A stretch of DNA of 43,083 nucleotides, from contig JBBSVV010000005.1 of the NCBI GenBank assembly GCA_038046625.1, forward strand, positions 7,103 to 50,185. Direction: 5' to 3'. Shown in pieces: positions 26,384-43,083 of the stretch. The position numbers were made by a program, and so were the translations under genes. Every line of letters starts with the position of its first letter. The stretch's first letter is position 1. The notes below the pieces were generated by a model. The model worked only from the letters and a program-made list of their open reading frames with translations. It had not been told where the DNA came from and ran no database searches. This DNA comes from an archaeon. Its GTDB lineage: Archaea > Iainarchaeota > Iainarchaeia > Iainarchaeales > Iainarchaeaceae.

Positions 26384-27985
26384 TCATTCCAAACCCTCCG
26401 CGATTTCAATTGCCCTCAATGCCGCTTTCGCCTTTTTCTCGGTTTCCTCGAACTCCTTCTCAGGAACCGAATCGAACACAATGCCGGCTCCGGCTCTCAC
26501 ATAAGCCCTTCCTTTCTGCAGGGACATGCTCCTTATGACAATTGCGGAATCAAAGTCGCCTGAAGGCGTCAAGTAGCCTATGCTTCCTCCGTAAAACCCG
26601 CGCCTGGTCTTTTCATGCAGGCGTATCAGCTTCATTGCCTCTACCTTCGGCGCCCCAGTTAAGGTCCCCATGTTCATGGATGCGAGGTAAGCGTGCAGCG
26701 CATCCAAGTCGCTTTTCAGAATTCCTGAAACATTGCTCATGAGGTGCTGGACATGAGAGTACTTCTCAATCATGTAAGGCCTGTCACAATGCCTGGTTCC
26801 CGGTTCGCACACGCGCGCAACGTCATTGCGCGCCAAATCAATGAGCATCGTGTGCTCCGCCATTTCCTTCTCATCATTCTTCAATTCCGCTTCATAGCGT
26901 GAATCCAAATCCAAATCTATTTTCCCGTTTATTATGCCTCTCGGTTTTGTTCCCGCAATCGGCCGTATCTCAACTTTTTTCCTTTCGTCCCCTTCCACTT
27001 TGAGGAAGGTTTCGGGGCTGCTCCCCAAAAGTATTCCGGAACTGTTGTTGAAGTAGAACATGTAAGGGCTCGGGTTTAATTCGCGCAGGGCATTGTAAAT
27101 GTCCAGCGGTTCCGCCGAGTATGCCGCAATCATTGTCCTTGAAGGCACAACCTGGAAAACATCGCCAATGAGAACGTGCTTCTTGAGCCTCTCAACCATC
27201 GCGACAAACTCCTTCTTTGGTGTGTCGCTCGAAATCGATATTTTCTTTTTTTTATGGGGCTTCGGCTTCGGGGCAGTGGCGTCCAGCATTTTCCTGTATC
27301 CGTCAATTACTTCTGTGCACCTTTTTTCCTCGCTTTCCATGTCTTTTTCCGAAAAAATCAGCGCGTTGCACACAAAGCTTATTTCGTTTTTTTTGTGTTC
27401 GACAATGAAAAGGTTGTCGTAAAAATTCATTTCATAATCGGGCTCCTTCAGGACATCCTTCCTGTTCTTCGGGAGCTCCTCGAAATTGTCTATGAAATCA
27501 TACCCGATTGCGCCGATCAGGCCGCCGTACATGACAAAGGGCTTGTATGCGGGCTTCAGCCTGAATGCTATTGCGCGAAGCACATCCGCATGCGTTTTTC
27601 TCTTCAGCCTTTCCGATTCGCTCACCGTGCCCTTGTCAATTTTTATGCTTCCGGAAATTTTGTCCGCAGTGATTTTCAATCCGGAGCAGAAATCAAGGGA
27701 ATGGGCGATTTCTTTGAGGAATTTCCCGCCGGTTTCGCTGAGCGCAATCACCTCGAACCTTTCTCCTTTTCCGCGCGCCTTGAGGCAGGGCTCCGCGCTC
27801 CCGATGCTCTTTTCACCGTACTTTGTAACCACGTCGGCGCTTTCAAGCAAAACACAGTTCTTTTTTCTGCCGTAATCCGAGATTTTCGCGAAGAAATCGC
27901 AGGCGTTTCCGCTGAAAGGCATTGTTTCGTACAGCGGGACAATGCTTCCCGGCCTTGACTTCAATAGTTCTTCCGTGCCTTTCAT
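26384..27985 (-). CDS. trpE: anthranilate synthase component I
   Basis: About 533 aa from the ATG at 27985 (MKGTEELLK), with a C-terminal chorismate-binding domain (GAGIVFDSVPEKEFEETE). The track ORF extension to 28099 reads into the tRNA gene. Confidence 0.9.
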   Translation of the reverse strand: MKGTEELLKSRPGSIVPLYETMPFSGNACDFFAKISDYGRKKNCVLLESADVVTKYGEKSIGSAEPCLKARGKGERFEVIALSETGGKFLKEIAHSLDFCSGLKITADKISGSIKIDKGTVSESERLKRKTHADVLRAIAFRLKPAYKPFVMYGGLIGAIGYDFIDNFEELPKNRKDVLKEPDYEMNFYDNLFIVEHKKNEISFVCNALIFSEKDMESEEKRCTEVIDGYRKMLDATAPKPKPHKKKKISISSDTPKKEFVAMVERLKKHVLIGDVFQVVPSRTMIAAYSAEPLDIYNALRELNPSPYMFYFNNSSGILLGSSPETFLKVEGDERKKVEIRPIAGTKPRGIINGKIDLDLDSRYEAELKNDEKEMAEHTMLIDLARNDVARVCEPGTRHCDRPYMIEKYSHVQHLMSNVSGILKSDLDALHAYLASMNMGTLTGAPKVEAMKLIRLHEKTRRGFYGGSIGYLTPSGDFDSAIVIRSMSLQKGRAYVRAGAGIVFDSVPEKEFEETEKKAKAALRAIEIAEGLE

Positions 27986-28038
27986 AAAAACCACAAAACC
28001 GCGCTTCGGCGCCTCTTTCTTTTTGGTACAGCTTTTTC

Positions 28039-28058
28039 CTTTCTCTGCAAAGAGAAAG
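28039..28058 (-). promoter_or_regulatory. hairpin in the tRNA-Trp to trpE spacer
   Basis: Minus-strand CTTTCTC-TTTGCA-GAGAAAG has a 7-bp stem flanked by T5 and A5 that can extend it. It lies immediately 3' of the tRNA. Confidence 0.4.
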
Positions 28059-28069
28059 AAAAAGGTGTG

Positions 28070-28142
28070 TGGAGACAGAGGGATTTGAACCCCCATCAAT
28101 CGGTCTGGAGCCGATTACACTACCAGGTTATGCTATGTCTCC
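28070..28142 (-). tRNA. tRNA-Trp (anticodon CCA)
   Basis: Folded by hand. Acceptor GGAGACA/TGTCTCC, anticodon stem ATCGG/CCGAT with loop CTCCAGA, T-arm GGGGG-TTCAAAT-CCCTC, discriminator A73, no encoded CCA. G1-C72 plus A73 is the archaeal/eukaryal Trp identity set. Confidence 0.9.
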
Positions 28143-28334
28143 AAAACACCCCCTGCATTTGAATTAGCAAGTATAGGGGGATAGAATTCGTATGGGGGAT
28201 TTTTAAAAATAGGAAATTTCAAACGCATGGCTAGCAAGAACTTATTGGAAATTGCTCCAAAGTAAATCCCTTCTGGCCATAAAATCAGTAAATATTGGGG
28301 CTTCAATGTTATTTAAATGTTGCTTTTGGGGTTC

Positions 28335-36301: not shown

Positions 36302-37378
36302 CTATTGTCCCTTAACCTGCTTTGCAATCAATTTTCCCATTTCAGATGTGCCCACAAGTTTTTTTCCTTCACTCATAATATCCTTTGTCCTGTTCTCCTG
36401 AATGGCTTTTTCAACCGCCTTTTCAATCTGCGCGGCCTCTTTTTCCAGTCCGAATGAGTGCCTCAAAAGCATTGCTCCAGAAAGCACTGCCGCAATTGGG
36501 TTTGCAACATCAAGGCCTGTATACTTTGGCGCCGAGCCATGAATCGGCTCGTACAAACCGAAACTCGTTTCCCCAAGGGAAGCGGAAGGAAGCATTCCCA
36601 AGGAACCCGTAACCATGGAACTCTCGTCGCTCAAAATGTCCCCAAACAAATTTCCCGTAACAATCACGTCGAACTGCGAGGGATTCTTTATGAGCTGCAT
36701 CGCGGCATTATCAACATAGCAATGTTCAAGTTCAACATCCTTATAGTTCTCGTGGACTTTTGTCACAACTTCTCTCCAAAGGGTAGAAGTGTAGAGAACA
36801 TTTGCTTTATCTACTGAAGTAACTTTTTTTCTTGGGCGTTTGCGCGCGAGCTCAAAGGCCTTTTTCGCAATCCTCTCCACTTCAAAGCGCGAATACTTCA
36901 TCAAATCGCTCCTCCATGTGTTTGCCTCATCCATGTCCTTTTTCCCGAAGTAAACGTCCCCCGTAAGCTCGCGCACAACAAGGATGTCGACGCCCTTCTC
37001 GATTATTTCCTTTTTCAGGGGCGAGGCATCCGCAAGCGCGGGATAAATTTTTGCCGGCCTCAAATTAGCGTACAGGTCAAAGATTTTCCTCAAAGGCAAA
37101 AGAGCCGCGCGCTCGGGCTGCTCCGCGGGAGGAAGCTTCTCCGCTCTCGGATCTCCGACAGCCCCAAGAAGGATTGCGTCAGAATTCCGGCACAGTTCAA
37201 TTGTTTCCTTGGGCAGGGCCTGGCCTTTATTTTCATACGCGGCGTAGCCTACCAAGGCTTCCTCAAAATCAAGTTCCAGCGAATTTTTTTCAGCAACAGC
37301 CTTCAGGCTCAAAATTGACTGCTTAATGATTTCCGGCCCGATGCCGTCGCCCGCAAGAACAGCGATTTTTTTCCCCAT
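36302..37378 (-). CDS. leuB: 3-isopropylmalate dehydrogenase
   Basis: 358 aa with NLFGDILSDE and GSAPKYTG-type motifs (HGSAPKYTG). Confidence 0.95.
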   Translation of the reverse strand: MGKKIAVLAGDGIGPEIIKQSILSLKAVAEKNSLELDFEEALVGYAAYENKGQALPKETIELCRNSDAILLGAVGDPRAEKLPPAEQPERAALLPLRKIFDLYANLRPAKIYPALADASPLKKEIIEKGVDILVVRELTGDVYFGKKDMDEANTWRSDLMKYSRFEVERIAKKAFELARKRPRKKVTSVDKANVLYTSTLWREVVTKVHENYKDVELEHCYVDNAAMQLIKNPSQFDVIVTGNLFGDILSDESSMVTGSLGMLPSASLGETSFGLYEPIHGSAPKYTGLDVANPIAAVLSGAMLLRHSFGLEKEAAQIEKAVEKAIQENRTKDIMSEGKKLVGTSEMGKLIAKQVKGQ

Positions 37379-37416: not shown

Positions 37417-37953
37417 ATGGTTCCGCCACAACTGGAAGCCAATGATTTCCGCGGCGCCACGCCGCACATAAGGCAGCCTGATTTGTTCGAACAGCCCCAA
37501 AAAATCGAGGATTTGGTTGCGCGCCTCGTGAATTCAGGAACAATCATGAAGACGCGCTCGCACGGCAGGAGAAGGGAAAACCTCGCAAAGGAGGCGGCCG
37601 CGATTCTCGTGCAGCTCAATTCGTTCAGGTGCTTCGACCTGAAGAATCTCGTGGTTTTTCTCACGAACAAAAAAAACTATGGTGGTCTCGTGAATGAAAT
37701 AGGAATGATAAATTCAAGGGAACTCTTGCGAAGAGCCCTAATGAATCCTGATGTTTATTCCAGGCCCGCAGATAAGCAGGTTTTTGAAAGAACCAAAGCA
37801 GAGGTCCCTAAAGTCTTCAGAGAAATGGTTGCACTCGCGGAGCACGCCAACAAAGTCAGGCTTTCCAAGAAAGCGCACGCCCTTCCATTGAAACTGATGA
37901 TTGAAAGGGAGCAAAATTTGAGGGCATTAAAGCGCACGACAAGGCTCCGCTGA
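37417..37953 (+). CDS. hypothetical protein (basic, helical), start uncertain
   Basis: 178-codon ORF with no recognisable motifs. Its first codons overlap the leuB promoter, so a later ATG (for example 37546) is as likely. Confidence 0.35.
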   Translation: MVPPQLEANDFRGATPHIRQPDLFEQPQKIEDLVARLVNSGTIMKTRSHGRRRENLAKEAAAILVQLNSFRCFDLKNLVVFLTNKKNYGGLVNEIGMINSRELLRRALMNPDVYSRPADKQVFERTKAEVPKVFREMVALAEHANKVRLSKKAHALPLKLMIEREQNLRALKRTTRLR

Positions 37954-37960
37954 AATTTTT

Positions 37961-38977
37961 TTATTTTCTCCTGAACAGCGCGCGGATTTCCTTCCCTGTT
38001 TTCTCTATCTGGTGCGCATTCTGTTTTTCCCTGAGCGCATTGAAATTCTTTGCGCCCGAGCGGTACTCATTAATCCACTCGTTCGCAAACTTTCCCGATT
38101 CAACATCCTTCAGGATTTCCTTCATGCGCTTCTTGACATCAGGCCCGATGATTCTGGTTCCCCTTGTGCGTCCGCCGTACTCTGCAGTATTTGAAACTAC
38201 GTGCCACATGTGCGCCATGCCGCCCTCGTAAACCAAGTCAACAATCAGCTTCATTTCATGCAGGCACTCAAAATAAGCCATCTCAGGCGGATAACCTGCC
38301 TCGACAAGTGTTTCAAAGCCAGCGGTAATGAGTTCTGAAAGGCCGCCGCACAAAACAGCCTGTTCCCCGAACAAGTCCTCGTAAGTTTCCTGCTCAAAAG
38401 TGCATTCCAAAACACCCGCTCTTGTAAGGCCGACGCCTTTCGCCATTGCCAACGCGGTTTCCTTTGCCTTTCCAGAAACATTCTGTTTTACCGCAATCAA
38501 ACCAGGAACTCCGAAGCCCGCGAGGTACTGCTTCCTTTCTTCCGTTCCGGGCGATTTCGGCGCAAGCATAATAACGTCAATCTCCTTTGGTGGTTTTATG
38601 AAACCAAAACAAATGTTAAAACCATGCGAAAAAGAAAGAGTTTTCCCTTTCTTCATGTGCGGCCTAATGTCCTTCTCAAAAACTTCGCCCTGAACCTCGT
38701 CAGGAATCAAGACATGTACAATATCGGCTTTTGCCGCTGCTTCGGAAGTTTCAAAAACCCCAAAACCGTAACTCTTCGCGTCCTGCCAGCTCTTGCTGCC
38801 CTTCTTCAAGCCTACTATCACATTGAGGCCTGAGTCCTTCATGCACTGCGCCTGGGCCTTTCCCTGGGCGCCATAACCTATAACCGCGATTGTCCTTCCC
38901 TTGAGCACGGAATAATCCGCGGCATCATCATACATCAGATTCAAAACCATTCCAAAAACCCCCAAAAACCAAATCAT
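37961..38977 (-). CDS. ilvC: ketol-acid reductoisomerase
   Basis: GYGAQGKAQA, class I KARI length. The likely start is the ATG at 38950 (MVLNLMYDDAADYSVLKG). Confidence 0.95.
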   Translation of the reverse strand: MIWFLGVFGMVLNLMYDDAADYSVLKGRTIAVIGYGAQGKAQAQCMKDSGLNVIVGLKKGSKSWQDAKSYGFGVFETSEAAAKADIVHVLIPDEVQGEVFEKDIRPHMKKGKTLSFSHGFNICFGFIKPPKEIDVIMLAPKSPGTEERKQYLAGFGVPGLIAVKQNVSGKAKETALAMAKGVGLTRAGVLECTFEQETYEDLFGEQAVLCGGLSELITAGFETLVEAGYPPEMAYFECLHEMKLIVDLVYEGGMAHMWHVVSNTAEYGGRTRGTRIIGPDVKKRMKEILKDVESGKFANEWINEYRSGAKNFNALREKQNAHQIEKTGKEIRALFRRK

Positions 38978-38994: not shown

Positions 38995-39462
38995 TTAAAT
39001 TACGTTCGTTCCGGAGCGCGACATTTCAACTATCTCAAACCCCTTTGAAACCGCTTCAATGAATTCCTTCATCCTTTCCGGCCTGTCAATGAATTCCACA
39101 ATTGCGCAGCCTTCCCTTGTTTCAAGCGTTTTTGCGCCGAAAGAATCCAGCATCTCTTTGAGGCCTTTCTTTGCCCTTATCTTGAAAAGGGCCTGCTCGC
39201 GCAAAAAAGCATCCTTTGCAGGAAAAACCTCGATTGAAATGACGTTGACCACTTTTCCGAGCTGGCTTTTTGCCTGCTGAACCTCATCCTCATTCCCCTT
39301 AATCATGAGCACAATGGTTGCCTCGTTCCTGTCAAAATGCCTGCCGACACACGCGGATGAAATGTTGTAGCCCTTCCTAGCAAGAAGTGTTGCAATCCTC
39401 GCCATTACGCCTTTCTGGTTTTCCACAAGCATTCTCAGAACATATTTTTCCATGCAAATCAC
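38995..39462 (-). CDS. ilvN: acetolactate synthase small (regulatory) subunit
   Basis: About 155 aa with an ACT domain (LRMLVENQKGVMARIATLLARKGYNISS). GTG at 39462 overlaps the ilvB stop (GTGA); an ATG at 39453 is an alternative. Confidence 0.9.
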   Translation of the reverse strand: MICMEKYVLRMLVENQKGVMARIATLLARKGYNISSACVGRHFDRNEATIVLMIKGNEDEVQQAKSQLGKVVNVISIEVFPAKDAFLREQALFKIRAKKGLKEMLDSFGAKTLETREGCAIVEFIDRPERMKEFIEAVSKGFEIVEMSRSGTNVI

Positions 39463-41147
39463 TTGAAATAATCCTTGCCTATCTTTTCTCCCCTCATTTC
39501 ACTGTTCGAGGCGCCGGCCGGCACAATCGGCAGGACAATCGCATCAGCCTTCACATGCACATTGATTATGGAAGTCTCGTCATTCTTCATCGCTTCCTGC
39601 AGCGCAGGCGCAATCTCCGAGTGCCTTTCAACAGTCAGTCCCTTGAGCGAATACGCCTGCGCGACCTTCTCGAAGTCAGGGATTTTTCCAAGCAAAACCT
39701 GGCTCCTCCTTCCCTCGTAAAACATGTCATTCCACGCGCGCACCATTCCCAGGTAACCGTTGTTCATGATTACATTAATGACTTTGACCTTGTTCACTTT
39801 CGCAGTCGCGAGCTCCTGCATAGTCATTACAAAAGAACCGTCGCCGTCAACATTGAAGACCTCCATGTCAGGGCAGGCAAATTTCGCGCCGATTGCCGCG
39901 GGAAACCCGAAACCCATTGTGCCAAGGCCTCCGGAAGTGATGAATTTTCTCGGCTTCGAGAACTTTATGAAGTGCGCAACATCCATCTGGTGCTCCCCGA
40001 CTCCAGTGGTCACGATCGTGTCATCCGTAAAAACCTTCTGAAGCTCGAACATCAATTTGCGCGGGTCAATGGGATTGGAATCAATGTTAATGTCCTCCGC
40101 ATACTCCTTCCGCATTACCTTCAGTTTTTCGTTCCACGCCTTGTTCTTCCACTGCATTTTCCTCACAATGCGCAGCATTTCCCCGAGAACCTCTTTTGCA
40201 TTCCCGAGTATTCCAAGCTGGGCTTTGCGGTTCTTGTGTATCTCGCTCGGGTCAATCTCAATGTGAATTACTTTTGCCTCCGGCGCAAACCCGCTCAAGT
40301 TTCCTGTTACGCGGTCGTCAAACCTTATTCCAATTGTAAAGAGCACATCACATTTCTGGATGGCATAAACCGCGGGAGGCTGGCCATGCATTCCAGTCAT
40401 GCCGAGCGAGAGAGGATGCCTTTCATCAAAAACCCCCTTGCCAGCTAGGGTGGTTGCAACCATTATATTGCATGTTTCCGCAAGCTCTTTAATCTCGTTG
40501 TGGCAGTTCGCGTGAACCGCGCCCCCTCCTGCAAGAAGCACGGGCCTTTGCGCCTCAAGCAGCATTCTGGACGCTTCCTTGATTGCTTCGGCATCAAAAC
40601 CGTTGATTACCTTATAACCCTTCAGCTTCACTTCTTTTTTTTCAGTAACCTCCTTTTGCTGCACATCCTTAGGCAACTCAATGTAAACCGGGCCCGGCCT
40701 GTTTGTCGAGGCAATGAAATAAGCCGCATCCACAATGCCGTCAATTTCGTTCGGGTCGGTAATCTGGAAATTGTGCTTCGTGATAGGCGTAGTAATTCCC
40801 ATCAAATCCGCTTCCTGGAACGCATCCTTTCCAATGAGGCTTGTGATAACCTGCCCGCCGATTGCAACCATGGGCACGGAATCCATGAACGCGTCCGCAA
40901 TACCCGTAACGAGATTTGTCGCGCCCGGGCCCGAAGTCCCGAGGCAAGTGCCTACCCTTCCCGAGGACTTTGCATAGCCCTCAGCCATGTGCGCGCCCCC
41001 CTGTTCGTGCCTCACGAGGATGTGCCTGAAAGAATTGTCCCTGTAAATTTCGTCATAAAAAGGAATCACGACCCCGCCGGGAATCCCGAACAGGCAGTCA
41101 ACGCCGTTCCTTTTCAGCGCCTCGAGAAAAACCTTTGCGCCCTTCAT
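39459..41147 (-). CDS. ilvB: acetolactate synthase large subunit
   Basis: 562 aa ThDP enzyme with GGLGTMGFGFPAAIGA and GDGSF motifs. Confidence 0.95.
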   Translation of the reverse strand: MKGAKVFLEALKRNGVDCLFGIPGGVVIPFYDEIYRDNSFRHILVRHEQGGAHMAEGYAKSSGRVGTCLGTSGPGATNLVTGIADAFMDSVPMVAIGGQVITSLIGKDAFQEADLMGITTPITKHNFQITDPNEIDGIVDAAYFIASTNRPGPVYIELPKDVQQKEVTEKKEVKLKGYKVINGFDAEAIKEASRMLLEAQRPVLLAGGGAVHANCHNEIKELAETCNIMVATTLAGKGVFDERHPLSLGMTGMHGQPPAVYAIQKCDVLFTIGIRFDDRVTGNLSGFAPEAKVIHIEIDPSEIHKNRKAQLGILGNAKEVLGEMLRIVRKMQWKNKAWNEKLKVMRKEYAEDINIDSNPIDPRKLMFELQKVFTDDTIVTTGVGEHQMDVAHFIKFSKPRKFITSGGLGTMGFGFPAAIGAKFACPDMEVFNVDGDGSFVMTMQELATAKVNKVKVINVIMNNGYLGMVRAWNDMFYEGRRSQVLLGKIPDFEKVAQAYSLKGLTVERHSEIAPALQEAMKNDETSIINVHVKADAIVLPIVPAGASNSEMRGEKIGKDYFK

Positions 41148-41226: not shown

Positions 41227-42783
41227 TCAATTTATCGCCCTCTTTTCATTATTATGGTTCGCCATAGCCTTGTTAAGGCATTTGATAAGCGCCTGTGCAG
41301 AGGCCATTGCAATGTCCTCCTTCAATGCCTCGGCAGTGAAAGAACTGCCATTCGAATCCGTGATGGTTATTGTGACGTCCGCAAGCGCATCCGTGCCCCC
41401 GGTAATTGCCTTCAAGTTGTAGTCCTTTAACCTGAATTCTTTGCCTACCGCCCTTATTATCGCGTTCGCCATCGCATCAACCGGGCCGACACCCTCTGCC
41501 TTTGCGGCAACTTCCATGCCCTTGACGCTCAGCCTCACGCTTGCAACCGGCTTCACCTTGTTCCCCGTGCTGATTGTTATTTCCTCCAGCTTCACAAGAA
41601 CCTTTTCCGGCGAGAGCCTGTCGGCAATATTGTTCGCAATCGCAATTATGTCCTCCTCGAAAATGATTTTATTTTTGTCCGCGAGCGCCTTCATTTTGTC
41701 CGTGACATCCTGAACCTCCTTATTGCTCATGGAGTAGCCGCGCTTTTTCAGGAAATCCGCAACGGCCGCCTTTCCGGAATGCTTTCCAATCACGAGCTCG
41801 GTTGTTTTGCCAATGGTTAAAGGATTCATAATCTCGTAAACCTCGCGGTTCGCGAGGATTCCATGCTGGTGAATTCCGGCTTCATGCGCGAACGCATTCC
41901 TGCCGACAATGGCCTTGTTCGCCTGCACAACCATTGAAGTGAAGCCCGAAACCATTTTGCTCGTGTTGTAAATTTCATCCAGTTTTATGTTTGTGGTGGC
42001 ATTGAAATAATTCTCGCGCGCATGAAGGTTCATTATGACTTCTTCGAGCGCGGCATTTCCGGCCCTTTCCCCTATTCCGTTAATTGTGCCCTCGACCTGC
42101 GTGGCGCCGTTCTCGATGGCGGCGAGGCTGTTTGCAACGCTCAAACCAAGGTCATCGTGGCAGTGCGTGGAAATGGTTATTGATTCATTGTAATTCGGCG
42201 TGTTCGCAATAATGTCCTTAATCAGCGAACCGAATTCCTTTGGCTGCGTGTAACCGACAGTATCAGGAATGTTCAGAGTGGTTGCACCCGCATCAATTGC
42301 TTTTTCAAGCACATCATACAAAAATTCCTTTTCGCTCCTGCCCGCATCCTCCGGAGAAAATTCTATGTCCTCACAATAATTCTTTGCGTACCTCACCCAC
42401 TTCTCCGCCTCCGCCTTGACTTGAGCGGGTTCCATGTGCAGCTTGTACTTCATGTGTATCGGCGATGTCGCCAAAAAAACGTGGATGCGCGGCTTCTTCG
42501 CGGACTCGATTGCCTTGAAAGCCCTGTCAATGTCCTCCTTCCTGCACCTCGCGAGCGCGCACACAACCGGCTTGGAAAGGGTTTTGGCAATCTCCTTCAC
42601 CGCAATAAAATCATCATCGCTCGCAACCGGAAACCCGGCCTCGATGATGTCCACATTGAGGCGCTCGAGCTGGCGCGCAATCATTATTTTTTCTTTATGA
42701 GTAAGAGTTGCCCCCGGGCTCTGTTCGCCGTCACGAAGGGTCGTGTCGAAAATTTTTATCATTTTCTTTCCGCCTTCAGCCAT
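41227..42783 (-). CDS. leuA: 2-isopropylmalate synthase (long form with C-terminal LeuA regulatory domain)
   Basis: About 518 aa with [11 protein letters not shown] and HCHDDLGL motifs. ATG at 42783 (the track TTG at 42786; an ATG at 42762 is also possible). Confidence 0.95.
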
Positions 42784-42908
42784 CAAAAAAACCTTTTTTT
42801 TCGCGCAATTTTTTTGCCTTTGTTTTCCCGTTTTTTCCCTTTCACTATAACGACTTCTGCCTTTTCTTAAAACCGCGCCCCCAGAATCCGAATTTTTTTA
42901 GGAGTGCT

Positions 42909-42977
42909 TTATGCTGGCAGCACGAGTACGACAAGCATCAGAACAAGCAAAACCGGACCCGCATTGCCTTTAAACAT
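42909..42977 (-). CDS. candidate Leu/Val leader peptide (22 codons)
   Basis: My own translation is MFKGNAGPVLLVLMLVVLVLPA*. Twelve consecutive NTN codons give 6 Leu, 5 Val and 1 Met. An A/T box TTATTTAAAT is centred about 27 nt upstream of the ATG. The peptide ends 125 nt upstream of leuA. Confidence 0.5.
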   Translation of the reverse strand: MFKGNAGPVLLVLMLVVLVLPA

Positions 42978-42997
42978 GTAATATATTAGCCCACTGG

Positions 42998-43010
42998 AAA
43001 TTTAAATAAG
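42998..43010 (-). promoter_or_regulatory. TATA-like box for the Leu/Val leader / leuA operon
   Basis: Minus-strand CTTATTTAAATTT has spacing to the ATG at 42977 that fits a leaderless archaeal transcript. Confidence 0.4.
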
Positions 43011-43083
43011 TATCGCTTTTCGGCGAAGAAAACAGGGGCAGGTTAAAATAGTCCAATGCACTATTTTTTGCGGTCAAAATGCC

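Follow-up and report, generated by a model that had tools for sequence, protein, structure and literature searches.

The systems that most resemble the one described here are known from bacteria. In Escherichia coli, the Val and Leu codons of the ilvBN leader peptide (ivbL) and the Leu codons of the leu leader peptide (leuL) match the products of the genes that follow, in a four-segment 1:2/2:3/3:4 design with an intrinsic terminator. The actinobacterial LEU element, predicted by comparative genomics (Seliverstov et al. 2005, PMC1262725), combines an open reading frame lying upstream (uORF) and carrying a run of Leu codons before leuA with a predicted pseudoknot; in its base stem the Leu codons are paired to the Shine-Dalgarno (SD) sequence of leuA. 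The ilvB leaders of Corynebacterium, Mycobacterium and Streptomyces (ilvB-II motif, PMC10272879) place a short Ile/Leu/Val-rich uORF at the 5' end of the ilvBNC mRNA, with an adjoining or overlapping hairpin, a strong terminator stem, a U run and an antiterminator; the C. glutamicum ilvBNC leader peptide is described as being made without a ribosome-binding site (RBS) (Morbach 2000, as cited in PMC13158618). Finally, mycobacterial leaderless poly-Cys small open reading frames (Canestrari et al., 10.1101/834739) are first-cistron sensors read by the ribosome, with no obvious terminator, in which a stalled ribosome blocks an RBS-sequestering duplex. For archaea, no examples of attenuation or antitermination were known according to Blombach et al. 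2021 (PMC8448881), and our literature searches found no archaeal leader-peptide system reported since then. A leuA-associated RNA motif of haloarchaea may be among those of Weinberg et al. 2017. Here we describe a candidate system of this kind, a short Leu/Val-rich uORF followed by a conserved RNA structure upstream of leuA-ilvB-ilvN-ilvC, in a 43,083-nucleotide (nt) stretch of DNA from an archaeon of the Iainarchaeota (assembly GCA_038046625.1, contig JBBSVV010000005.1, positions 7,103 to 50,185; hereafter the window). On comparative sequence grounds we consider it probable that this is a cis-regulatory leader sensing Leu and Val.

The locus resembles each of these systems in part. With the LEU element it shares the Leu-codon-run uORF before leuA and perhaps the pseudoknot; it differs in its archaeal promoter, in a hairpin that abuts the stop codon and in the use of Val besides Leu, and it lacks complementarity between the Leu codons and the SD sequence. 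With the actinobacterial ilvB leaders it shares the short hydrophobic uORF, the neighbouring hairpin and what would be SD-free translation, but it has no conserved terminator, contains almost no Ile, comes from another domain of life and shows no sequence or Rfam relationship to them. As in E. coli, codon content follows the product, with Val-richer leaders before ilvB, whereas the four-segment design is not conserved and the peptides fall outside the leader families of Pfam and NCBIfam. The presumably leaderless, first-cistron layout without an obvious terminator recalls the poly-Cys system, yet two tests described below show no RBS-sequestering duplex here. A search of the window with Rfam 15 gave only a tRNA-Trp above the gathering threshold, and in 42600..43083 no leader RNA matched at E up to 10; the four weak matches there (E 4-9) belong to unrelated families.

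The uORF occupies 42977..42909 (coordinates are those of the window, and all features lie on the minus strand unless stated otherwise) and consists of 22 codons, from the ATG at 42977, followed by TAA at 42911..42909; it encodes MFKGNAGPVLLVLMLVVLVLPA*. Its codons 9-20 (42953..42918), the proposed sensing codons, specify 6 Leu, 5 Val and 1 Met, and all 12 have T at the second position. This is the longest run of Leu, Val, Ile or Met codons in the six frames of the 43-kb window, the runner-up being 6. In 100 shuffles of its full length that kept the dinucleotide counts, no run attained 12, the maximum being 10. The preliminary description of this DNA, made from the sequence alone, had pointed to these 12 consecutive codons, had judged the pattern improbable as non-coding chance and had placed the ORF directly upstream of an operon for Leu and Val/Ile synthesis. 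The sequence and coordinates proved correct, and the genes that follow on the same strand are leuA (42783..41227), ilvB (41147..39459), ilvN (39462..38995) and ilvC (38977..37961), each an NCBIfam equivalog above cut-off. The leader element is present in the window as a single copy at this site (covariance model search, match 42842..42922).

An identical LeuA occurs as well in assembly GCA_964365115.1, where its contig is 76 kb long, and in groundwater metagenomes, the same contig being present in ERZ1292636 and SRR32696677/78/87; its nearest relatives, at 70-76% identity, come from metagenome-assembled genomes (MAGs) labelled Candidatus Iainarchaeum or Diapherotrites (DPANN). All five Iainarchaeota LeuA loci retrieved by protein similarity alone carry a 21-23-codon ORF in the same position, ending in ...LVLVLLA*. 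Scans of public sequence collections with a pattern of the RNA element, in which most matches were due to chance, contributed five further leaders (loci L105, L114, L129, L137 and L160), the metagenome scan giving at least one new sequence. A protein search with the IlvB of L129 then yielded 55 loci, 34 of them of DPANN type, and in 22 of these 34 a Leu/Val-tailed short ORF precedes leuA or ilvB. Altogether, short ORFs that begin with polar residues and end in a Leu/Val tail were found upstream of leuA or ilvB at 33 archaeal loci, in the window and in at least 32 related genomes, which answers positively the comparison of orthologous operons that the preliminary description had proposed as a check. 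No such ORF was present at 14 distant leuA loci (Odinarchaeia, Nitrososphaerales and bacterial), where the longest Leu/Val/Ile run is 3, or at the Nanohaloarchaeota, Aenigmarchaeota, Micrarchaeota, Thermoplasmata or bacterial ilvB loci checked. The MAGs bearing the leader are labelled Woesearchaeota, Nanoarchaeia and Methanosarcinales, among others. Three loci assigned to 'uncultured Methanosarcinales' (L285, L287 and L313) have a leader and hairpin (TGATTGCCCTAATTCTTA...) near-identical to those of MAGs labelled Woesearchaeota or Nanoarchaeia; either mis-binning of DPANN sequence or a transfer of the element could account for this.

The way in which the leaders diverge is consistent with translation. 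When the final ten codons were compared among the 11 closest leaders, codon positions 1, 2 and 3 showed 239, 77 and 294 nucleotide differences, and 189 codon differences were synonymous; the positional pattern is that of a translated run of NTN codons and not of an RNA helix. The tails of these 11 leaders contain 65 Leu, 38 Val, 18 Ala, 7 Ile, 6 Gly and 1 Met, with neither Phe nor Trp. Composition also depends on the gene that follows: the Val share, V/(V+L), averages 0.61 before ilvB (0.30-1.0, n=5) and 0.31 before leuA (0.15-0.45, n=27; Mann-Whitney p=0.0045), and one ilvB leader, MKNTTYNVNSVSVVVVVV, is essentially poly-Val. The length and N-terminus of the peptide vary freely among loci. 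These sequence comparisons indicate that the uORF is probably read as codons, with a Leu/Val content tied to the first gene, and they strongly support the central proposal of the preliminary description, a putatively translated Leu/Val ORF at the head of the transcript, positioned to sense the supply of the two amino acids for leuA-ilvBNC. A side observation concerns the N-terminus, where Phe is often residue 2 or 3 (MFK, MGF, MHF, MNF, MQF, MFS, MFE, MKF), as in the window and in L003, L004, L005, L105, L129, L137, L263 and L265; leaderless initiation may favour certain nucleotides here, AUGNNNUUU, in which case the Phe would not be a feature of the peptide as such.

The second conserved component is a hairpin, S1, placed at the stop codon. 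In the window it spans 42907..42875, its 5' arm GCACUCC (42907..42901) beginning 1 nt past the TAA and pairing, with one A.C mismatch, to the 3' arm GGGGCGC (42881..42875). In all 32 loci folded, the hairpin begins between -3 and +3 nt from the uORF stop; it spans 19-40 nt (30-40 in 31 loci), with energies of -3.5 to -18 kcal/mol. The position is kept while the arms are wholly different among clades: GCACYCC/GGRGUGC, GCCCUCUGAA/UUUAGAGGGC, AUGUCCUC/GGGGAUAU, GCCCUAAUUCUU/AAGAAUUAAGGGC and CUGGUCU/AGACCGG. Stop-adjacent 45-nt segments have a mean folding energy of -12.7 kcal/mol, compared with -2.3 for flanking controls of equal size (p about 1e-9), and 24 of the 32 have z below -2. A covariance model built from the window's clade (11 members) added 11 sister-clade homologues, giving a 22-sequence alignment (A3), fitted to the structure, in which S1 pairs in 91.5% of cells as against 41-73% in slid controls; two-sided changes occur at 7 of 7 pairs (27 cells), which none of 500 shuffles attained. 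In an unfitted MAFFT alignment the S1 pairing is 83.5%, compared with 41-55% in controls.

Downstream of S1, the window's clade carries a further helix, S2 (42890..42851), whose 5' arm CGGAUUCUG (42890..42882; clade consensus CGRCUUCUG) lies within the S1 loop, abutting the S1 3' arm, and whose 3' arm is CAGAAGUCG (42859..42851). S2 crosses S1, which gives the topology of an H-type pseudoknot; the two A-rich loops, of 10-13 and 12-16 nt, are sterically adequate. Its arms are near-invariant in the 11 clade members, where 88.9% of cells pair; in the wider set 81% pair, chiefly through one-sided C-G to U.G changes. An S1/S2 pseudoknot in this clade is plausible but unproven, and the near-invariant conservation suggests that S2 is also recognised as sequence. 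The 3' arm overlaps a motif, AGAAGUC-N-UUA(U)AG (42858..42845), which 19 loci bear at a constant distance of 49-52 nt past the uORF stop. This motif is not the end of a read-through or frameshift product, the frame of its UAG/UAA relative to the uORF being 0, 1 and 2 in 4, 7 and 8 loci, nor is AGAAGTC-N-TTA a genome-wide signal, with 1 exact match in the window and 1-mismatch matches at chance level. S1, S2 and this motif had all been overlooked in the preliminary description, which therefore missed the main RNA feature of the locus.

A structure of this kind raises the question of whether the RNA alone could be the regulatory element, with the S1/S2 pseudoknot and the AGAAGUC-N-UUAG motif forming a riboswitch or protein-binding site and the ORF being incidental or an aid to folding. 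The covariation of S1 is compatible with this, S2 and the motif are invariant beyond the needs of pairing and held at a fixed distance, and A-rich loops are typical of ligand-binding H-type pseudoknots; as there is no Rfam match, it would be a new class. Yet S2 and the motif occur in only part of the family, whereas every member has the Leu/Val ORF with a hairpin beside its stop codon. An RNA-only element would also leave unexplained the period-3 conservation and the tuning of Leu versus Val, and the strict 0-3 nt spacing from stop to hairpin points to an interplay between ribosome and RNA. We regard this explanation as unlikely.

The placement of S1 makes its folding dependent on the position of a ribosome on the uORF. 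If the ribosome covers about 12-13 nt beyond the A site, as bacterial and archaeal ribosomes do, then with S1 starting at the stop codon a terminating ribosome would cover the S1 5' arm, so that the two cannot coexist. In partition-function modelling with the ribosome footprint held unpaired, the probability of S1 in the window is 0.06 in the free RNA, 0.25 with an early stall, 0.94 with a late stall and 0.00 with the ribosome at the stop. A similar trend was obtained for L003, L105, L266, L270 and L274; in most other loci the modelled S1 forms whenever the stop is unoccupied. In the window, the competitor of S1 is an optional helix, S0 (42923..42904), in which GUGCU (42923..42919, codons 19-20) pairs with AGCAC (42908..42904) across the stop codon at -6.2 kcal/mol; S0 excludes S1 because the GCAC is common to both. 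Strong S0 helices (-8 to -12) are found in nine sister-clade loci, in two sequence versions, and S0 is weak in the closest relatives of the window; the cognate mean for S0 is -4.95, the non-cognate mean -3.99.

These features invite comparison with transcription attenuation of the bacterial type, in which S0 would be the antiterminator and S1 with a U tract the terminator, or else S1 the antiterminator and S2 the terminator. The window does have S0, S1 and a U4 tract (42872..42869, 2 nt past the S1 3' arm, a terminator-like context) in the right order, six of the nine sister-clade loci with a strong S0 have U4-5 directly after S1, S1 and S2 compete in nested folding, and ribosome position toggles S1. 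Against this, neither the closest relatives of the window nor the loci of Woesearchaeota/Nanoarchaeia type have more than a weak S0, which rules it out as a universal antiterminator and leaves it clade-specific. Only 8 of the 32 loci, the window included, have U4-5 directly after S1, a feature not kept in the closest relatives, and S2 is followed by just 2-3 U and encloses a loop of roughly 20 nt. With S1 as terminator, a late stall would terminate transcription, which is the wrong sign, and S1 and S2 share no nucleotides and can coexist as a pseudoknot. Archaeal termination, moreover, rests mainly on oligo-U and less on hairpins. Bacterial-type attenuation seems to us improbable.

The remaining features between the RNA element and leuA vary among relatives. 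In the window, a purine-rich spacer (42844..42784) ends in A8-GG-T7 (42801..42785) beside the leuA ATG, with a weak AAGG SD sequence, and the distance from uORF stop to gene start is 125 nt, within a range of 63-293 nt across relatives. The GGGAAAA repeats noted in the preliminary description are present in this spacer, but its length, sequence and repeats are not conserved. Likewise, the A8-GG-T7 that had been put forward as a termination site or A-U hairpin exists as described, yet the T7 is confined to the window among the loci compared, and neither T7 nor A8-GG-T7 can be retained as the attenuation site. The GTGCT/AGCAC stem over the stop codon, which corresponds to S0, is real; its strong counterparts are limited to the sister clade.

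The promoter bears both on how the uORF would be translated and on whether it could be a gene of its own. A BRE-like (transcription factor B recognition element) CGAAAAG at 43021..43015 precedes a TATA-like TTATTTAAAT (43009..43000) that starts 32 nt before the uORF ATG. Of the 11 clade members, 10 have a TATA-like octamer that starts 27-32 nt before the ATG, so that the placement suited to a leaderless start, already noted in the preliminary description, is shared by the relatives; overall, an octamer at -27 to -34 is found in 20 of 32 loci. Archaeal promoters have the TATA box centred about 26 nt before the transcription start. Together, this geometry and the spacing imply a leaderless or near-leaderless transcript beginning at or next to the uORF ATG. 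In some sister-clade loci the TATA lies about 10 nt further upstream; the idea that sister-clade uORFs are SD-led (AGTGA) is weakened by the TATA spacing, most being compatible with leaderless starts. No TATA-like box was found in the 50 nt before leuA in the window, and the leuA ATG of L001 and L003 follows the conserved RNA element by only about 20 nt, too little to accommodate a second promoter; in the window's clade the uORF and leuA must therefore be transcribed together. The loci of Woesearchaeota/Nanoarchaeia type are arranged differently, with T-rich tracts about 10 nt after a longer hairpin and, in L278, L283, L285 and L313, a BRE/TATA-like GGAAAAATTTATAAAAAAC 31-32 nt before the leuA ATG, leuA there also having a good AGGTGA SD sequence. 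This suggests tandem promoters, or an attenuator feeding a second start site.

The same T-rich tracts and second promoter-like box would also fit a separate transcription unit for a functional hydrophobic micro-protein, such as a membrane peptide, in which case the hairpin would be the 3' end or terminator of a small gene and the synteny with leuA or ilvB would involve no sensing. The polar-then-hydrophobic layout is like that of small membrane anchors, and leader peptides can act in trans (peTrpL, PMC7298713). The hydrophobic run of 12-14 residues is short for a bilayer span, however, and Ile, Phe, Met and Trp make up 7% of the hydrophobic residues in the tails as against 51% in transmembrane-like segments of proteins from the same genome; these two points disfavour the small membrane peptide that the preliminary description had offered as an alternative. 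Nor would a conserved micro-protein be expected to vary freely in length and N-terminus, to include a poly-Val member or to shift in composition with the first gene. Eight leader peptides gave no Pfam or NCBIfam match, leader-peptide families included, at E up to 10, and in the window's clade there is neither room nor signal for a second promoter. We consider a micro-protein quite unlikely. A chance ORF in a U-rich intergenic region, which its mere 22 codons and the hairpin z of -0.8 in the window might allow, is effectively refuted by the shuffles, the 33 loci, the coding-type substitutions and the compensatory RNA changes.

A cis-acting leader of leuA-ilvB-ilvN-ilvC, in which the translating ribosome is the sensor, would work as follows. 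Transcription would start at or next to the ATG of the 22-codon ORF, the last 14 codons of which nearly all specify Leu or Val. With an ample supply of charged tRNA-Leu and tRNA-Val, the ribosome would reach the stop and cover the S1 5' arm, which would keep S1, and with it the S1/S2 pseudoknot, open. Under a shortage of Leu or Val it would stall in the run, freeing the S1 5' arm and blocking the competing S0, and S1 would fold. In the modelled structures, folded S1 would so be a mark of starvation and open S1 a mark of rapid translation; negative feedback then demands that folded S1 favour expression of the operon. The state of S1 would set the amount of full-length operon mRNA that is made or survives. 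A candidate read-out is termination or cleavage of the nascent transcript by a factor of the aCPSF1/FttA type, acting on the U-rich loop of S1 while the hairpin is kept open by a terminating ribosome; alternatively, the mRNA may be protected by the stalled ribosome and the folded pseudoknot. In Salmonella leaders of the mgtL/mgtA type, which depend on Rho, completion of a small ORF versus stalling selects between folds that expose or hide an entry site for the termination factor. Such a scheme requires no intrinsic terminator and has the correct sign, but it serves as an analogy only. To our knowledge archaea have no Rho, and the analogous factor would be aCPSF1/FttA. The latter is a general archaeal termination factor (PMC7515710). 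By this analogy, factor-dependent premature termination or cleavage is a possible but doubtful read-out, and to no specific read-out do we give more than tentative credence.

Other read-outs fared less well. Unmasking of the RBS by a stalled ribosome was rejected, as no systematic change in accessibility accompanies the modelled ribosome position, and pairing of the LEU-element type between the Leu/Val run and the SD sequence was ruled out, the duplexes being no better than those of shuffles. A second uORF coupled to leuA (TGATG in the window, ATGA elsewhere) is not conserved in start or length; a stop overlapping the leuA start occurs in 21 of 30 loci, mostly as a trivial ATGA arising from Lys or Arg second codons.

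Several observations weigh against a Leu/Val-sensing leader and should be set beside the evidence above. Taken alone, the S1 of the window is weak (z -0.8), the 22-sequence alignment that shows the two-sided changes was fitted to the structure, and no compensatory change supports S2, in the clade or in the wider set. The compared sequences are phylogenetically related, which inflates the p-values given here. A consensus scan found no intrinsic terminator in 42300..43083, and none is conserved among relatives; in simple coupling models a lagging ribosome would favour termination at a hairpin followed by a U tract, which is the wrong sign. The two tests of the downstream RBS were also negative: its unpaired probability is 0.534 in the free RNA, 0.546 and 0.547 with a stalled ribosome and 0.536 with the ribosome at the stop (p=0.24, 0.87), and duplexes between the Leu/Val run and the RBS have a mean z of +0.17, with 1 of 30 loci below -2. 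In the loci of Woesearchaeota/Nanoarchaeia type, the second BRE/TATA-like box means that the small ORF could be a separate transcription unit. It is from sequence and modelling that we infer translation of the uORF, ribosome stalling and the direction of the response, and in the Streptomyces ilvB leader the candidate regulatory codons were altered without effect (PMC1262725), a result that calls for caution in deducing function from architecture.

With these points taken into account, the comparative data appear to us to give good support to an archaeal form of leader-peptide sensing, one in which a hairpin or pseudoknot next to the stop codon takes the place of the terminator/antiterminator pair. 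Whether the element is the first recognisable ribosome-mediated amino-acid attenuator in Archaea, spread over several DPANN lineages (Iainarchaeota together with genomes labelled Woesearchaeota or Nanoarchaeota) and read out without an intrinsic terminator or RBS masking, is a proposition that we hold to be about evenly balanced. Its non-bacterial read-out may run through aCPSF1/FttA or through mRNA stability.

As for the surroundings of the operon, leuB (37378..36302, an NCBIfam equivalog above cut-off) is probably outside the control of the leader, because a separate TATA-like box precedes its ATG by about 33 nt; between ilvC and leuB lies a divergently oriented ORF of 178 amino acids (37417..37953, plus strand) with no Pfam or NCBIfam match. 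On the other side, the window stops at 43083 because the public assembly has a scaffold gap there, written as a run of N (just beyond the edge, L020 4602..4700). In other assemblies of the same organism (L022 and L024), an opposite-strand gene of 122-126 amino acids ends about 100 nt upstream of the leader promoter, which places the leader within a divergent intergenic region.

A second arrangement in the window involves another amino acid. The gene for tRNA-Trp(CCA), at 28142..28069, lies directly upstream of trpE on the same strand (start 27985), which is followed by trpG, trpD, trpCF, trpB and trpA, making the trp operon complete, and then by aroA, aroK, aroB and aroD down to 17622; no separate trpE promoter is obvious in 27985..28210. 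The linkage of tRNA-Trp and trpE is found in 8 of the 9 closest TrpE loci (L316, L317, L319, L320, L321, L322, L323 and L327), one of them in the complete genome CP010424; L324, L329 and the bacterial loci checked lack it. The tRNA-Trp genes of L319 and L323 contain an intron and were missed by ARAGORN. The conserved spacer between the two genes (27986..28068; also in L316-L323) begins with a pyrimidine tract, CCUUUUUCUUUCUCU, right after the tRNA, which forms a long hairpin with a complementary purine tract, AGAGAAAGGAAAAAG. Past CUGUACC there follows a purine tract of mirror orientation, AAAAAGAAAGAG, duplicated in L317 and L320, and in the window a small GC hairpin and UUUUGUGGUUUUU abut the trpE ATG. 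The spacer has the potential for alternative pairing or a triplex. The tRNA-Trp gene may head a regulatory leader of trp, which would give these genomes a second leader specific to an amino acid.

If the Leu/Val leader functions as proposed, ribosome-based sensing of amino-acid supply would extend to the archaeal domain, built there on archaeal promoters and leaderless mRNAs. The leader would open two matters to direct tests, the coupling between transcription, translation and RNA folding in archaea and the nature of what substitutes for the intrinsic terminator, and it would provide a compact, portable sensor, with 33 natural variants, that could be used for genetics in model archaea. DPANN genomes, commonly viewed as poor in regulation, would then hold lineage-specific RNA regulation, and, taken with the tRNA-Trp-headed trp operon, these reduced archaea would regulate amino-acid biosynthesis mainly via RNA leaders.

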